Positions 446 through 5,524 of a stretch of 5,524 nucleotides of DNA are shown here, piece after piece (the first letter of the stretch is position 1; the number at the start of each line of letters is the position of its first letter). The position numbers and the translations under genes are program-made. The notes under the pieces were generated by a model. That model had not been told where the DNA came from, did no database searches, and saw only the letters and a program-made list of their open reading frames with translations. The DNA is from Candidatus Iainarchaeum sp. (GTDB lineage Archaea > Iainarchaeota > Iainarchaeia > Iainarchaeales > 0-14-0-20-30-16), in NCBI GenBank assembly GCA_903916665.1, contig CAIWXP010000023.1, positions 1-5,524 on the forward strand, read 5' to 3'.

Positions 446-464
446 TTGTGATTAACTATCACAA
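446..464. terminator. Short perfect inverted repeat (TTGTGAT-TAACT-ATCACAA) between convergent genes
   Basis: The 7-bp arms at 446-452 and 458-464 are exact reverse complements around a 5-nt loop. The repeat sits in the 16-bp gap between the stop of the + gene (440-442) and the stop of the - gene (459-461) and overlaps the latter. The stem is weak, with only 2 G:C pairs. Confidence 0.2.
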
Positions 465-1118
465 AACTATTTGTTCACCAATTTTTAAAACCTTAACTTT
501 AGTTTTTGTTTTAGTTTCAACTTGGGTTTTAAAATCATTAACATCTGCATTTATTTTTGCGAATGTGTTGTAGTGCATAGGGATACAAAATTTAGGTTCA
601 ACAAATTCAACTGCTTTAATAGCTTGCTTTATGTCCATTGTATATCTTCCACCAATTGGCAAAAGCAAAACATTTGGAGCATAGAGTTCTTTATATAATT
701 TCATGTCACTAAATAATCCTGTGTCGCCAGTATGATATAAAACTAACCCATCTTTTTCTAATATTACACCAACAGGATTTCCACTGTGATGTGCTTGAAC
801 AAAAGTAATTTTCCAACCAGCAATTTCTATTGAACCACCAATATTTAGGTCTTCATGTTTAAATTTAAATAATTCAGATGCATGTAGGTTTTCGCCAGTT
901 CCAATTACTGTTGCACCTGTTTTTTCAGCAATGGTTTTTGCTCCTTGGAAATGATCGGCATGGCCATGAGTTATAACAACAACATCAACGTTTTCTAAAT
1001 CTTCTTGTTTTAAAGTGTAAGGTGCTTCTAATCCCCAATGTTCTATTCTTTCAACAAAAGGATCAATAATTAAATTATCAATTTTAAAACCCGCATGTCC
1101 TAACCATTTAATATTCAT
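459..1118 (-). CDS. Metal-dependent hydrolase, metallo-beta-lactamase fold, UPF0173 (YtkL-like) family
   Basis: The 219-aa product starts MNIKWLGHAGFKI, which is typical of the family N-terminus. It carries the HxHxDH metal motif (ITHGHADH), then YHTGDTGLFSDM, LLPIGGRYTM and PMHYNTF, all collinear with UPF0173 proteins as I remember them. A strong SD lies upstream. Confidence 0.85.
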   Translation of the reverse strand: MNIKWLGHAGFKIDNLIIDPFVERIEHWGLEAPYTLKQEDLENVDVVVITHGHADHFQGAKTIAEKTGATVIGTGENLHASELFKFKHEDLNIGGSIEIAGWKITFVQAHHSGNPVGVILEKDGLVLYHTGDTGLFSDMKLYKELYAPNVLLLPIGGRYTMDIKQAIKAVEFVEPKFCIPMHYNTFAKINADVNDFKTQVETKTKTKVKVLKIGEQIVL

Positions 1119-1136: not shown

Positions 1137-2180
1137 TTAACCCCACAAAGTCTTTTGAGCTTTCTTTTCAGTTAATGTTTTTTCTAATTCATTTAATGTA
1201 TTATTAACTCGATCTTCATTAAATTCATATTTACTAATTAATAAATCTTTAATCTTTGGAAAATTTGGTAATTGTGGTTTGTTAATTTCAATATCTTTTG
1301 CTTTGGGTTTCCAAAATATATCAAATACTTCCTGAGGATCATAGTCTGGTTTATATTCTAATTTTGCAAATATGTTTTCCAAAGAATCATTTTCTTGCAC
1401 CAATTTAATTGCTGTTTTTGGTCCAACCTTAGGAACCTTTTCATTAAAGTCTGTACCAATTAACATACCAATCCAAATTAGTTTTTCTCTTGTTAATTGC
1501 ATTTTATCTAAGGTTTTTTCCAAATTAATGTGTTCTGGTTTAACCTGTATATAGTAATCTTTACCCATTGCTTTTTTCTTTCCAGATATTGCAATATTCT
1601 TGTAAAGATCTTTTCCTCCAAGCAATAAAACATCGTAATCCTGTGAAACAATTCCATCTAATTTTCCTTGCATGTTCATTACACTTAATTGTGCTTCTCC
1701 ATCATGCAAAGCATCAAAGTGTTGAATATTAAAAGCATCTAATAATTCTTTTGCATTTGAAATCATTTCAGGAGTTATTTTTGCAGTTCGTTTCATTAAT
1801 TGCGCAGAGCCTTCTAAATCTCCGGCTAACTTTTTTATTTCTGCATTTTTACTTGCTTCAATTTTAATGTCATGCCTTTTTGTAATTGTATCTTTCTTTA
1901 GATCTAAACTTTTACCATCAAAAACAAAAGCTAAATTAATATTTTCTTGTAATAACTTAGACATTCTATAAAATAATCCTATAATATGACTTGTAACAAT
2001 ACCTTGTGAATTAGTTAGATATTCACCATTTAGGTCTCTAATAGTAGTAAGAAATTGATAGGTAATGTTATGACCATCCACACCAAGAGTTTTGTTCTTC
2101 AAGCTACTTAGCTCGATTTCTTCTTTCCAAATTAAATCGCCAATCGGTGTTCCCATAATATCACTTATATATAATGTCAT
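1137..2180 (-). CDS. fen: Flap endonuclease 1 (FEN1, archaeal/eukaryal XPG-family 5' nuclease)
   Basis: The product is collinear with archaeal FEN1. Matching blocks include MGTPIGDLI..KEEIEL, GVDGHNITYQFLTTIR, TSHIIGLFYR and FVFDG. They also include DGEAQ, SQDYDVLLLG, LTREKLI..GMLIGTDFN, and a C-terminal Q-containing PCNA-type tail. The acidic active-site residues are present, and the first Glu of the usual EGE is Asp here. The longest ORF starts at 2180 (MTLYISDIMG...). Homology favours the internal ATG at 2156 (MGTPIG...) as the true start. Confidence 0.93.
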   Translation of the reverse strand: MTLYISDIMGTPIGDLIWKEEIELSSLKNKTLGVDGHNITYQFLTTIRDLNGEYLTNSQGIVTSHIIGLFYRMSKLLQENINLAFVFDGKSLDLKKDTITKRHDIKIEASKNAEIKKLAGDLEGSAQLMKRTAKITPEMISNAKELLDAFNIQHFDALHDGEAQLSVMNMQGKLDGIVSQDYDVLLLGGKDLYKNIAISGKKKAMGKDYYIQVKPEHINLEKTLDKMQLTREKLIWIGMLIGTDFNEKVPKVGPKTAIKLVQENDSLENIFAKLEYKPDYDPQEVFDIFWKPKAKDIEINKPQLPNFPKIKDLLISKYEFNEDRVNNTLNELEKTLTEKKAQKTLWG

Positions 2181-2189
2181 TAAGATATA

Positions 2190-2197
2190 TTTATATA
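2190..2197 (+). promoter_or_regulatory. Candidate archaeal TATA box (TTTATATA) for the giant + strand gene
   Basis: This is an exact match to the archaeal box-A consensus TTTATATA. It lies about 40-47 nt upstream of ATG 2237. A start site about 25 nt downstream would give a short leader containing the GGGG SD-like element. TATA-like strings are common in DNA this AT-rich. Confidence 0.3.
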
Positions 2198-2199
2198 CT

Positions 2200-2207
2200 A
2201 TTATAAA
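2200..2207 (-). promoter_or_regulatory. Candidate TATA box (TTTATAAT on the minus strand) for fen
   Basis: The minus strand reads TTTATAAT at 2207..2200. A start site about 25 nt downstream falls near 2178-2180. That implies either a leaderless transcript from ATG 2180 or a roughly 24-nt leader for ATG 2156. The AT-rich background makes this weak. Confidence 0.2.
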
Positions 2208-2224
2208 GTAATATAATTGAATTT

Positions 2225-2231
2225 AAAGGGG
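2225..2231 (+). promoter_or_regulatory. SD-like purine/G run (AAAGGGG) upstream of ATG 2237
   Basis: This is the only G cluster in the intergenic region and it ends 5 nt before the ATG. Confidence 0.4.
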
Positions 2232-2236
2232 TTTTA

Positions 2237-2314
2237 ATGGTAAATAAATTGGTTTCAATTTTTATATTATTTTTTAGTTTATTATTTATTTTATCATTAA
2301 CATATGGTACTGCT
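2237..2314 (+). other. N-terminal Sec-type signal peptide (or signal anchor) of the giant protein
   Basis: MVNK is the basic n-region, LVSIFILFFSLLFILSL is the h-region, and TYG-TA has small residues in the c-region. The exact cleavage site cannot be determined by eye. Confidence 0.6.
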
Positions 2315-5300
2315 TGGCCTGGAAGTAATGCAACGGAAATTCAACAAAATTTGCCAGGAGGGTATGAGCCATCAGGTGTTATTTGGCATCCCTATTATAA
2401 TGCTTTATTTACAGTAAGTGATGGTGGGACATTAAGTAAAATGGATTTAAATGGGGACAATGTAACTAATTGGTCTGTGCCTGGTGATTTAGAAGGAGTA
2501 ACAATAATTGATTCCAAATCAAAATATGTTTATATTGTAGTAGAATACCCCTATGCAATAATTCAATTTGATCCATCAAAAGGGGAAATAGTAAAAACAA
2601 TTTCTTTAACTGGAGTTATTCCTGCAACAGTTGCACCAAACCAAGGAATTGAAGGAATTGCATATGTTCCCAATGGTTATCATCCTTACGCAAATAGTTT
2701 AAATGGTGGTTTATTTTATTTTGGGGTTCAAGAAAATGGAACAATTTATGTTGTTGATATAAATTTTGATTCTGAATTAGCAACATTAGATGCAAATTTT
2801 ATTCCTGTGTCTAATCCTTTGAGAACTGATATTTCAGATTTATTTTTTAGTACAGATACTAATACATTGTATGTTTTATATGATAGTGCAAATAAGTTAA
2901 GAGAAATAACTACAACTAATAATCTTATTAAAGAATATGATGTTCCAGGAACAGAACAAGAAGGCATCACAATTTTATCATTGTGTCCAAATGCAACAAC
3001 CAATATTTTTATTGCAGAAGATACTCCTGCAAAATTAACAAAATATAATGGCTATCCTGAAACGTGTAAGTTTGTGGATTTAAGTGTTGATGGAATATAT
3101 CCTAACCAAAATAATTTAATAAAAGGAGATCCACTAAATTTAATTCTGTATATTGTTAATAATGGAACTATTAGTACAGATCAGAATTTTTTTGTAAAAT
3201 ATTATATTGATAATATAGAGCAAACATTGTGTACTTTAAATATAAGCAATAGTTTAAGTGCAGGTTCTGGTAGTATTTATGGTTGTGGTAGATTAGATAT
3301 TTCAAATTTATCATTTGGTGATCATAATATTATGGGACTTGTTGATTATCAAGGGCCTGATGAAAATGAAGATAACAATTTTTTGATTAGTCAAATAAAT
3401 ATATACTATGATTTTCCTGGAGATAGTAATGGTTCTTCCGAAAATCCATATCAAATTAGAGATTTAAATGATTTAGATGCAATAAGATATTATTTAGATG
3501 CAAATTTTATTTTGATGAATGATATTAATGCCTCTGATACAATTAATTGGAATGATAATAATGGTTTTGAACCAATAGGTTATGATTGGGATAATTTGTT
3601 TTCAGGATCATTTGATGGAAATAATTATGCAATAAATAATTTGTATATTTATAGATCAAATGAAAGTAATGTGGGATTATTTGGTATAATTGGTTCAACA
3701 GGTAGAATTTCAAATTTAAATTTGAATGATTTTAATATAACTGGTAATAATAATACAGGTGCTTTAGCAGGATATTCTTTAGGAGATATAAATAATTCAC
3801 ATTTTAGTGGAACAGTTAATGGTACAAATAATATTGTTGGTGAACTAGTTGGTTATAATAGAGGCAATATAAATTATTCTTCTGGAAATGGAATTGTTAA
3901 TGGAACATATAATCAAACAGGTGGTTTAGTTGGTTTTATGAATTTAGGTAGCATTGATAATTCTTATTTTATTGGAAATGTAAATGGAGATAGTGAATTA
4001 GGTGGTTTAGTTGGAGAATTAGATGGCCAAGATTTAAATAATTCTTATTCTATTGTAAAAGTAAATGGCATAGGTCATAATATAGGTGGATTAGTTGGAA
4101 AAAATAACGGGCATATAAACAATTCTAACTCAGATTCAAATGTAAATGGTCAATATACTATTGGTGGTTTAATTGGTCTTAATGAATCTTTAGGAATAAT
4201 ATTTAATTCTCATTCCAATGGTTTTGTTATAGGATCAGATGGTATTGGTGGTTTATTAGGAACTAATTTAGGAATTGTTTCAAATTCATATTCAAGTTCA
4301 GATACAAATAACTCTGGCAATACAAATGGTGGTTTAATAGGCTCTAACTATGGTTTAGTTTCTGAATCCTATGCAAGTGGAAATGTATATTCTGAAGGAT
4401 CAAGTGTAGGCGGCTTAATTGGTTTTAGTGATGTAAATAATATTTCAAATTGTTATTCTATAGGCAATGTAATTGGTGACTCTGGTGTTGGTGGTTTAAT
4501 AGGAGCATTAAGCACTGGTGAAATTATAAATTCTTATTCTATTAGTGATGTTAATGGATCAGGAAATCATGTTGGTGGTTTAGTAGGAGAATGTGATGAT
4601 ACAATAATTAATTCATTTTGGGATATTAATACATCGCATCAATTAGATAGTAATGGAGGAATTGGAAAAACAACAGAACAAATGAAAGATATTAATACTT
4701 TTACAGATGCCAATTGGAACTTTGATAATATTTGGAAAAAAAATAATATTGATAATAGTGGTTATCCATATTTGCAATGGCAAAGTTATGAACAATATAT
4801 TGATTTAAATGTAGTTATAAATGATATTCCAGATGTAAATGTAGGACATTATGTTTCATTTCAGTGTACAGTTTATAATTTTGGAAATATTACCGCAAAT
4901 CTTATAGAAGTTGCAACTGTTATTGATGGTGAATCTAGCAGTTCAACATTTGGATCTCAAGAAAATTTATTGCCAGGGCAATCTATGAATTTTGATTTTG
5001 GATTTTCTCCTTCTTTTAAAGAAGATGATGCAAATATTGGTTGTGTTGTAAAGAATTATTATACTTATAATGATTATATGGACGATAATTTTAATGATCG
5101 CAATTCAAATAATAATTTTGTTTACGCAATAAAATCAATAGGATCAGATACAAATGTTGATTTAGCAGTAACAAATATTAGATTAAATAAAAACACATCA
5201 GGATCAAATACAATATATGTTGATGTAAATAATTTGGGTACAGAAATCTCAAGTCATGATTTTAGATTAAATCTTAGTGATAGCTCAAGACATTATAGAG

Positions 5301-5524
5301 GTTATAGTTTAATTTTAGATGAAAATATTTTTTTAGATATTAATGAAGGAATTACAATTTCTATTCCTTGGGATTTTAATGCTGGCGAAACAATTTTGAA
5401 TATTGGTGTTGATTATAATGTTTTGGGTTTTAATGGTCCAGAACCAACTGGTTATGATTCAAATATATTAAATAATAATTATGATAAAGATTTTAATATA
5501 TTTCAAGCTTCAACTGAAACGCAC
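2237..5524 (+). CDS. Giant secreted modular surface/adhesin-like protein, 3'-partial (at least 1,096 aa; runs off the window)
   Basis: This ORF is not in the ORF track. I translated every codon from ATG 2237 (codon starts at positions congruent to 2 mod 3) to 5524 and found no stop. An in-frame TAA at 2204-2206 bounds the 5' end, and ATG 2237 is the only ATG after it. The product begins MVNKLVSIFILFFSLLFILSLTYGTAW, which is signal-peptide-like. It then shows recognisable propeller, CARDB and GLUG beta-helix sequence signatures. Composition is Asn/Gly/Ser/Ile-rich. Confidence 0.9.
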   Translation, partial: MVNKLVSIFILFFSLLFILSLTYGTAWPGSNATEIQQNLPGGYEPSGVIWHPYYNALFTVSDGGTLSKMDLNGDNVTNWSVPGDLEGVTIIDSKSKYVYIVVEYPYAIIQFDPSKGEIVKTISLTGVIPATVAPNQGIEGIAYVPNGYHPYANSLNGGLFYFGVQENGTIYVVDINFDSELATLDANFIPVSNPLRTDISDLFFSTDTNTLYVLYDSANKLREITTTNNLIKEYDVPGTEQEGITILSLCPNATTNIFIAEDTPAKLTKYNGYPETCKFVDLSVDGIYPNQNNLIKGDPLNLILYIVNNGTISTDQNFFVKYYIDNIEQTLCTLNISNSLSAGSGSIYGCGRLDISNLSFGDHNIMGLVDYQGPDENEDNNFLISQINIYYDFPGDSNGSSENPYQIRDLNDLDAIRYYLDANFILMNDINASDTINWNDNNGFEPIGYDWDNLFSGSFDGNNYAINNLYIYRSNESNVGLFGIIGSTGRISNLNLNDFNITGNNNTGALAGYSLGDINNSHFSGTVNGTNNIVGELVGYNRGNINYSSGNGIVNGTYNQTGGLVGFMNLGSIDNSYFIGNVNGDSELGGLVGELDGQDLNNSYSIVKVNGIGHNIGGLVGKNNGHINNSNSDSNVNGQYTIGGLIGLNESLGIIFNSHSNGFVIGSDGIGGLLGTNLGIVSNSYSSSDTNNSGNTNGGLIGSNYGLVSESYASGNVYSEGSSVGGLIGFSDVNNISNCYSIGNVIGDSGVGGLIGALSTGEIINSYSISDVNGSGNHVGGLVGECDDTIINSFWDINTSHQLDSNGGIGKTTEQMKDINTFTDANWNFDNIWKKNNIDNSGYPYLQWQSYEQYIDLNVVINDIPDVNVGHYVSFQCTVYNFGNITANLIEVATVIDGESSSSTFGSQENLLPGQSMNFDFGFSPSFKEDDANIGCVVKNYYTYNDYMDDNFNDRNSNNNFVYAIKSIGSDTNVDLAVTNIRLNKNTSGSNTIYVDVNNLGTEISSHDFRLNLSDSSRHYRGYSLILDENIFLDINEGITISIPWDFNAGETILNIGVDYNVLGFNGPEPTGYDSNILNNNYDKDFNIFQASTETH
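2357..3055 (+). other. YjiK / SdiA-regulated-like beta-propeller domain (aa ~41-273)
   Basis: Several blocks match my memory of E. coli YjiK and are collinear with it. EPSGVIWHPYYNALFTVSDGGTLSKMDLNGD resembles EISGLTW...TLFS...IVEM..NGD. DLEGVTII and EYPYAII resemble DLE.IEY and ERDYAIY. NQGIEGIAY resembles NCGFEGLAY. DTNTLYVLYDSANKLREIT resembles QKNTLLVLSHESRALQEVT. EQEGITI...NIFIAEDTP resembles QAEGVAMD..NIYIVSEPN. Confidence 0.6.
3077..3403 (+). other. CARDB-like Ig-fold domain 1 (aa ~281-389)
   Basis: The segment follows the CARDB pattern: DLSVDGIYP..NLIKGDPLNLILYIVNNGTISTDQNFFVKYYIDN......LSAGSGS......LSFGDHNIMGLVDYQGPDENEDNNF. That is DL-V, a single-strand N-x-G-T motif, f-V-x-yy-d, L-x-aG, G-x-H-x-i-x-x-vD and E-x-nE-x-NN. 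Confidence 0.7.
3419..4780 (+). other. Right-handed beta-helix module with GLUG-type turns, including N-terminal lead-in and C-terminal cap
   Basis: The lead-in reads GSSENPYQIRDLNDLDAIRYYLDANFILMNDINASD..W....FEPIG....FSGSFDGNNYAINNLYI......VGLFG. It is followed by repeated xGGL[VIL]G turns. The cap reads NSFWDINTSHQLDSNGGIGKTTEQMKD..TF.DANWNFDNIWK......GYPYLQW. I recognise this ordered set of motifs from bacterial and archaeal GLUG-motif surface proteins. Confidence 0.75.
3659..4621 (+). repeat. About 12 tandem in-frame coding repeats of about 81 nt (27 aa), the GGLVG/GLUG turns
   Basis: The G-G-L-x-G pentapeptide (variants VGLFG, GALAG, GELVG) starts at 3671, 3758, 3839, 3920, 4001, 4085, 4163, 4247, 4328, 4409, 4490 and 4574. 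The spacings are 87, 81, 81, 81, 84, 78, 84, 81, 81, 81 and 84 nt. The DNA core ggtggtttaNttgg recurs nearly identically in 9 units, and the units are otherwise diverged. Confidence 0.85.
4802..5140 (+). other. CARDB-like domain 2 (aa ~856-968)
   Basis: DLNVVINDIPDVNVGHYVSFQCTVYNFGNITANLIEVATVIDGE......LLPGQSMNFDF......ANIGCVV......DDNFNDRNSNNNF. The strand order and the terminal acidic/NN motif fit CARDB. It is more diverged than domain 1. Confidence 0.55.
5159..5500 (+). other. CARDB-like domain 3 (aa ~975-1088)
   Basis: DLAVTNIRLNKNTSGSNTIYVDVNNLGTEISSHDFRLNLSD......INEGITISIPWDFNAGETILNIGVDYN......YDSNILNNNY. It shows the DL-V-x-I start, V-x-V-x-N-x-G-T, the W-x-x-x-x-G-E middle, the i-x-V-D strand and the terminal E/D-x-N-x-x-NN-like motif. 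Confidence 0.55.

Follow-up and report, generated by a model that had tools for sequence, protein, structure and literature searches.

A contig-end gene of an AT-rich DPANN archaeon probably encodes an exported, adhesin-like protein of propeller, GLUG helix and CARDB modules

What kind of protein is encoded by a long reading frame that fills the end of an archaeal contig, is still open where the contig stops and is missing from the list of open reading frames (ORFs)? The window—the whole stretch of DNA analysed here, positions 1–5,524 of contig CAIWXP010000023.1—carries such a frame at positions 2237–5524 on the + strand. An original prediction, made from the letters and the ORF list, read it as a giant modular secreted surface protein composed of a signal peptide, a YjiK/SdiA-regulated-like β-propeller, a CARDB domain, a 12-turn GLUG β-helix with cap and two further CARDB domains. 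Here we show that the frame is a real gene, truncated by the assembly at the contig end, and we propose, with moderate confidence, that it encodes the N-terminal 1,096 residues of a modular, adhesin-like protein that an AT-rich archaeon of the DPANN group exports by the Sec route and either displays on its surface or secretes.

Translation of the frame gives 1,096 codons with zero stops up to the final base of the window, and the remaining five frames over the same interval contain 58–166 stops. At the base composition of the window (28% GC, a stop chance of 8.5% per codon), a run of this length would arise by chance with a probability of about 3e-43. The GC content at the three codon positions (GC1 38%, GC2 35%, GC3 9.7%) gives a clear coding signature, typical of a real coding sequence (CDS) in an AT-rich genome. 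The predicted uninterrupted frame of at least 1,096 codons is therefore upheld by its stop-free translation, by the chance estimate and by codon-position bias. On the 5′ side, the closest in-frame stop lies at 2204, and the first ATG follows at 2237; an AGGGG located 5–9 nucleotides upstream of this ATG may be a ribosome-binding site. Scans of the window for sigma-70 promoters and terminators use bacterial models and are uninformative for an archaeon.

The frame had been described as missing from the ORF track, and it is indeed absent: over this interval, the list holds only short antisense ORFs, including one of 85 residues. However, ORFs that reach past either sequence end are not listed, so that the uncalled status of the frame is a bookkeeping effect and not biology. 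The 85-residue antisense ORF, which had been dismissed as an artefact, lies opposite propeller residues ~170–256, a region that is 50–66% identical to homologues, and its open frame is a side effect of the sense gene, because the opposite strand there encodes a conserved, confidently folded propeller. The label ‘giant’ goes further than the evidence, as only 1,096 residues are seen. Following the gene downstream to a stop codon and a C-terminal anchor, as had been suggested, did not succeed: searches of JGI metagenomes with protein patterns and with the exact 3′-end 23-mer found no extension beyond 5524, a protein-pattern scan of GTDB genomes returned only distant bacterial GLUG proteins, and exact-protein look-ups of the two neighbouring proteins gave one overlapping contig of 1,720 base pairs (bp) and, as the longest, a contig of 5,524 bp. 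This length equals that of the window, which therefore appears to be the entire contig.

The encoded protein opens with a leader within residues 1–27, the sole hydrophobic segment of the 1,096 residues by hydropathy. AlphaFold2 places a helix at residues 2–18, and an equivalent N-terminal segment is present in the homologues P0001-3, P0005 and P0008. The leader is probably a cleaved Sec signal peptide, or alternatively it could be a signal anchor; the proposed signal peptide thus has indirect support, from hydropathy and from conservation in homologues, and its cleavage is a prediction from the sequence.

The leader is followed by a β-propeller of the YjiK/SdiA-regulated type, in agreement with the original prediction. 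Residues 45–235 match PF06977 at 36.1 bits in the whole protein and at 43.5 bits in the N-terminal piece (cutoff 21). AlphaFold2, run with a 16-sequence alignment, models residues ~40–275 at a predicted local distance difference test score (pLDDT) of >90, with 20 strands that are consistent with five four-stranded blades. The top match in the PDB by Foldseek is Escherichia coli YjiK (3qqz; E 8.3e-10, TMt 0.70, 20% identity), and further matches include generic NHL/WD40 propellers, glutaminyl cyclase, regucalcin/SMP30 and 1l0q. The C-terminal domain of YjiK is therefore both the best fold match of the N-terminal domain and a member of the same Pfam family; however, YjiK is an envelope protein of bacteria with a single domain, whereas the propeller here forms the N-terminal head of a long, multi-domain protein from an archaeon. 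Some enterobacterial members of PF06977 are regulated by SdiA (PMC1084347), a trait of no relevance in an archaeal host. Across the homologues, the acidic residues E44, D84, E86, E103, D198 and D216 are invariant (alignment A1), which suggests a putative conserved metal- or ligand-binding site, and the Cys250/Cys277 pair is conserved as well.

The centre of the protein is a self-contained GLUG β-helix module in which an N-cap, a run of coils and a helical C-cap can be distinguished (Table 1). PF07581 (Glug) matches at 53.6–68.9 bits (cutoff 20.5) in nine stretches of the hidden Markov model (HMM), and twelve motif copies with a period of ~27 residues were read from the translation, ten of them canonical (G[GA][LIVF][VIAL]G by regular expression) and two degenerate. 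AlphaFold2 pLDDT exceeds 90 across residues ~400–850, and the cap consensus is common to this module and 20 homologous modules (alignment A2). The expectation of a 12-turn GLUG β-helix with cap is confirmed by these features. There are no tandem repeats at the DNA level in the GLUG region, indicating that the coils are old and diverged. GC skew reaches up to +0.50 across window positions 3250–4750, in the GLUG region, where it coincides with Gly/Asp/Asn-rich repeats; the skew probably stems from codon composition rather than from a replication signal.

The best solved matches of the module by Foldseek are 3n6z (BACOVA_03286, a putative IgA1 protease; E 4.9e-7) and 6xja (the Streptococcus pneumoniae IgA1 protease); phage tailspikes and the AlgE4 epimerase are also matched. 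Like the window protein, these IgA1 proteases have GLUG repeats forming a right-handed β-helix, and the N-cap resembles PF05342 (Peptidase_M26_N), which scores 20–21.5 bits over it, below the cutoff of 27.7. By contrast, IgA1 proteases have an M26 zinc-protease domain; no such domain is seen in the 1,096 residues, and neither an HExxH nor an HxxEH zincin motif is found in them. On the residues seen, we therefore rejected the reading of the protein as an IgA1 protease of family M26, the resemblance being limited to the β-helix part.

Three further domains flank the helix, and the evidence for them differs (D2, D4 and D5 in Table 1). The domain directly after the helix, D4, matches PF07705 (CARDB) at 30.2 bits (cutoff 22.7) over residues 856–937 and aligns with residues 3522–3630 of P0240, a 3,955-residue protein in which Cys877/Cys936 is conserved; this CARDB domain stands as predicted. 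D5, the last of the proposed CARDB domains, gives no Pfam match of its own, but its phmmer match to residues 3613–3743 of P0240 (E 4.7e-9) falls in a segment that scores 29.6 bits for PF07705. Residues 854–1088 of the window protein align with residues 3522–3743 of P0240 at 32% identity, a conserved Cys pair included, and since both members of the aligned P0240 pair pass the Pfam CARDB model, D5 is probably a CARDB domain by transitive homology.

The domain between propeller and helix, D2, had been taken for the first CARDB, an assignment that is not borne out: there is no Pfam match at E<=10, no phmmer match among 343 collected relatives and a pLDDT of <50. What D2 does give is weak BLAST matches, each from a search against a single subject, to residues 3300–3408 (E 2e-6) and 3087–3184 (E 8.5e-5) of P0240, the second of which passes Pfam CARDB; an alignment to a CARDB set with small profiles in hhalign, at a probability of 33% over 15 columns; and CARDB-like motifs that are visible by eye. 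It is probably an immunoglobulin-like (Ig-like) domain. When compared with one another, the three putative Ig-like domains showed no significant similarity; a search for homologues of the C-terminal 248 residues alone returned no matches, and neither did a sequence search of the PDB. Of the checks that had been proposed, the Pfam scan thus finds PF06977, PF07581 and PF07705 above their cutoffs but leaves the first and last ‘CARDB’ unmatched, and structure prediction per domain followed by Foldseek succeeds for the propeller and the GLUG module but gives no usable model for D2, D4 and D5.

Table 1. Features of the 5,524-nucleotide window, the open-ended gene and its domains first (aa, residues of the encoded protein).
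Feature	Coordinates	Strand	Evidence
Open-ended CDS, 1,096 codons, 3′ end cut by contig end	2237..5524	+	No stop; GC3 9.7% vs GC1 38%
N-terminal leader, aa 1–24: MVNK, 17-residue hydrophobic core, TYG–T	2237..2308	+	Hydropathy, homologue conservation
YjiK/SdiA-regulated-type β-propeller, aa ~30–276	2324..3064	+	PF06977, AlphaFold2, Foldseek
D2, probable Ig-like linker, aa 277–396 (originally the first ‘CARDB’)	3065..3424	+	Weak BLAST only
Self-contained GLUG β-helix module, aa 397–850	3425..4786	+	PF07581, AlphaFold2, Foldseek
GLUG module N-cap, aa ~400–473	3434–3655	+	PF05342 below threshold
12 GLUG coils of ~27 aa, aa 474–796	3656–4624	+	Motif copies
GLUG module helical C-cap, aa 797–850	4625–4786	+	AlphaFold2 helices
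D4, CARDB Ig-like domain, aa 853–948	4793..5080	+	PF07705
D5, probable second CARDB, aa ~969–1090, window end 6 residues beyond	5141..5506	+	Homology to P0240
Antisense ORF, 85 aa, TTG start; artefact within propeller CDS	2746..3003	-	ORF list
Short AT-rich divergent intergenic region between FEN-1 and surface-protein gene	2181..2236	.	Direct sequence reading
Archaeal flap endonuclease FEN-1	1137..2180	-	TIGR03674, 341 bits
MBL-fold metal-dependent hydrolase	459..1118	-	NF001911, 201 bits vs cutoff 144

The protein as a whole has features of the extracellular type. Its composition is strongly acidic (120 Asp and Glu versus 37 Lys and Arg), and its eight cysteines fall into four pairs, one per domain (250/277, 332/350, 739/786 and 877/936), at least two of which, C250/C277 and C877/C936, are conserved in relatives. 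The pairing suggests intradomain disulfides, consistent with an extracellular location. Such disulfides would be notable for an archaeon of a probably anoxic habitat.

Relatives were collected by a word-indexed search and an exhaustive HMMER search of 1.84 billion representatives, of which the best 72 and 150 matches, respectively, were inspected. They split into two groups that match either residues 1–330 or residues ~395–850. The first group comprises DPANN-type proteins of 50–66% identity with two tandem propellers and MopE/TSP3 repeats, including a ‘MopE-related protein [Nanoarchaeota archaeon]’ and one member whose archaeal surroundings include NreA and Trm5b. The closest relatives of residues 1–330 (P0001–P0005 and the Nanoarchaeota protein P0010) share with the window protein an equivalent leader and the conserved Cys pair, but they have two propellers and MopE/TSP3 repeats where the window protein has one propeller, and they lack both GLUG and CARDB. 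In P0001–P0005 and P0258 (for example, L005 8001–10424), the tandem YjiK-type propellers are 45–60% identical to one another and to the window copy and are followed by MopE/TSP3 calcium-binding repeats; by sequence, this looks like a lineage-specific expansion in DPANN-type archaea. Elsewhere the propeller is partnered with MopE/TSP3 repeats, CBM_4_9, cadherin-like and LamG domains or, in P0034, a papain-like peptidase C1.

The GLUG module recurs in 50,097 library proteins, the longest of 7,476 residues, each with one to more than 20 copies, and in many of these proteins the module is succeeded by an Ig-like domain. Propeller and GLUG were not found together among the 72 and 150 best matches, a depth at which a distant single-copy combination would score below the top 150. 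The sole relative found with GLUG followed by a tandem CARDB pair is P0240 (JGI 3300013138), which differs from the window protein in having no YjiK propeller, a far larger size and several GLUG modules. Its C-terminal end consists of a poly-Asp linker, a small domain, a transmembrane (TM) helix at residues 3891–3917 and a basic tail. The contig of P0240 (33% GC) may belong to a small-genome bacterium, a placement that would hint at the sharing of surface modules across domains: the gene (L010 281–13986) adjoins one for a 591-residue alanyl-tRNA synthetase that scores 823 bits for PRK01584 and 610 bits for TIGR00344 versus 211 bits for the archaeal TIGR03683.

From this arrangement, we propose how the protein might work. 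The leader would carry it through the membrane, leaving the YjiK-type propeller at the mature N terminus as the likely binding ‘head’; the small, probably Ig-like domain, the rigid 12-coil GLUG β-helix and at least two CARDB domains would then form a stalk and spacer. A β-helix rises 4.8 Å per coil, and at this rise the 12 coils would give a GLUG helix of ~6 nm in length. The absent C terminus would probably contribute further spacer domains and an anchor. If anchored as in P0240, the protein would hold its propeller several nanometres off the cell, where it could bind a partner cell, a polymer or a surface. A role in attachment or episymbiosis is plausible by analogy with proteins described in other archaea. 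GLUG proteins of Methanimicrococcus have been proposed to be adhesins (PMC9723798), and in the DPANN archaeon Mia14, strain-specific secreted propeller–CARDB surface proteins have been proposed to function in cell–cell interaction (PMC5498576). As proposed for the window protein, the Mia14 ‘ARMAN’ proteins described by Golyshina et al. are archaeal, exported, lineage-specific and large, and they combine a propeller, Ig-like domains (CARDB/PKD) and a β-helix. However, their propellers are of the Kelch or YVTN type, whereas here the propeller is of the YjiK/SdiA-regulated type and the β-helix of the GLUG type; the likeness is one of domain layout.

Several observations weigh against this proposal. 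The C terminus and any anchor lie past the contig end, and the closest propeller homologues, P0001–P0005, are without a C-terminal TM helix, which implies that the window protein may be released and not anchored. The model for the anchor, P0240, is probably bacterial and not archaeal, because its contig carries a short alanyl-tRNA synthetase of the bacterial type. N-glycosylation sequons are not enriched (28 versus 23 +/- 4.3 in shuffles), and AlphaFold2 gives no confident model for residues 277–396 and 852–1096. Neither YjiK-family proteins (PMC1084347) nor GLUG motifs (PMC9723798) have a known biochemical function, and the invariant acidic residues of the propeller, together with a Phytase-like match (PF13449, 29.7 bits), fit an enzyme equally well.

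The host and the setting of the gene are defined by its neighbours. Across a short divergent intergenic region lies a gene for FEN-1, which scores slightly below the equivalog cutoff of 352 bits. Its start is ambiguous: the longest ORF, from 2180, has 347 residues, but since close homologues have 339 residues and the NCBIfam model aligns from residue 9, translation probably begins at the ATG at 2156, giving 339 residues. The nearest named FEN-1 relatives are from Ca. Iainarchaeum (54% identity) and ‘Diapherotrites’ metagenome-assembled genomes (43–48%), and metagenomic relatives reach 71–82%. Together with a GC content of 28% and intergenic gaps of 16–80 bp, these relatives place the organism in DPANN: judged by its genes, the host is an AT-rich DPANN archaeon with Iainarchaeota/Diapherotrites as its nearest named relatives, in keeping with the AT-rich archaeon of compact gene spacing that had been proposed. 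Two relatives with FEN-1 proteins 71–77% identical to that of the window (L007 3915–8115 and L008 1549–5390) carry other flanking genes. In both, a Hef-like helicase/ERCC4 nuclease gene stands upstream of FEN-1, with an integrase or thioredoxin gene in between, and neither has a large surface-protein gene beside FEN-1. The pairing of the large gene with FEN-1 is therefore not conserved; either the window locus has been rearranged or the large gene was inserted specifically in this lineage.

At the far end of the window, an 86-residue ORF (182–442, +) has two hydrophobic stretches by eye, VGLLMTIGTLAKLLGF and WFWLLAGIGLTVEG, and is called as a gene at the same position on an overlapping ENA contig (L001). 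It matches no significant Pfam or NCBIfam family (best YgaP-like_TM, E 0.097) and is probably a small membrane protein. Scans of the window found no tRNA gene and no Rfam family.

Other readings of the large gene can be weighed against these data. It might encode a structural envelope protein of the S-layer type, as a main or accessory building block of the wall. Archaeal S-layer proteins combine β-propeller, PKD/Ig-like and β-helix domains (Jing et al. 2002, as cited in PMC5498576), a Methanosarcina surface-layer propeller–PKD protein (1l0q) is among the Foldseek matches, and an export leader and acidic composition would be in place. Yet conservation across the lineage would be expected of a core wall protein, whereas this gene is not beside FEN-1 in the relatives, no orthologue of the same architecture was found and there is no match to an S-layer family in Pfam or NCBIfam; we regard the S-layer reading as unlikely. 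Similarly unlikely, in our estimate, is a secreted or surface-tethered enzyme—a metal-dependent hydrolase propeller of the phytase- or esterase-like kind, or a β-helix acting on polysaccharides in the manner of tailspikes, pectate lyases or mannuronan epimerases—with the CARDB domains as spacers. The six invariant acidic residues would suit such an activity, as would the fold matches to glutaminyl cyclase, regucalcin/SMP30, tailspikes and AlgE4 epimerase and the fusion of propeller to papain-like peptidase in P0034. PF13449 does pass its cutoff of 27.6 bits on the isolated N-terminal piece, but it falls below it, at 25.8 bits, on the whole protein and overlaps the stronger PF06977 over residues 45–235. 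TM-scores to the enzymes are low (0.2–0.5), neither HExxH nor any other recognizable catalytic motif occurs in the 1,096 residues, and GLUG modules are without known activity.

That the gene belongs to an integrated virus or mobile element and encodes a tail-fibre-like protein for receptor binding seems very improbable. The GLUG-type helix does match predicted viral proteins (a siphovirus ‘putative IgA1 protease’, giant-virus proteins and tailspikes), residues 407–532 have one PHROG match of unknown function, and the locus is non-syntenic with its relatives, an integrase lying on the corresponding side of FEN-1 in one of them. However, the window neighbours, FEN-1 and the MBL hydrolase, are housekeeping genes, an N-terminal Sec-type leader is atypical in virion proteins, the propeller homologues reside in ordinary archaeal chromosomal contexts and no other viral genes are visible in the window. 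We likewise see scarcely any likelihood that the gene is a pseudogene or a chimera of the assembly, even though the contig ends inside it and the exact protein is absent from a collection of 5.8 billion proteins in which both neighbours are present: all 1,096 codons are intact and strongly biased in their usage, two large domains fold confidently with coherent domain boundaries, and the DNA lacks the tandem repeats that would promote misassembly.

The specific combination of modules was not found elsewhere, but each module is a common extracellular part with many partners. The novelty claimed for the architecture survives in that no relative among the best 72 and 150 matches has the same one, but the kind of protein is already well described: archaeal surface proteins of propeller, β-helix and Ig-like domains have been known since 2002 (Jing et al. 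2002, Structure 10:1453, as cited in PMC5498576), and the same account covers DPANN surface proteins. A bolder view, to which we give little credence, is that the YjiK-type propeller is a dedicated head for host recognition in DPANN archaea and that the window protein is a new chimera in which this head has been placed on a GLUG–CARDB stalk whose closest relative, P0240, is probably bacterial. If true, such a head-on-stalk chimera would suggest that ultra-small episymbionts have exchanged attachment hardware across domains, and it would provide a concrete candidate for a DPANN–host contact molecule.

On present evidence, the gene adds one more shuffled set of very common extracellular modules and does not change the understanding of such proteins; the question of what YjiK propellers and GLUG modules do is inherited by this locus, not resolved by it. 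DPANN archaea are thought to be attached to other cells, and the molecules of contact are mostly unknown, which makes large exported proteins such as this one reasonable candidates. In its well-folded YjiK-type propeller, the protein offers a concrete domain for expression and the study of binding.

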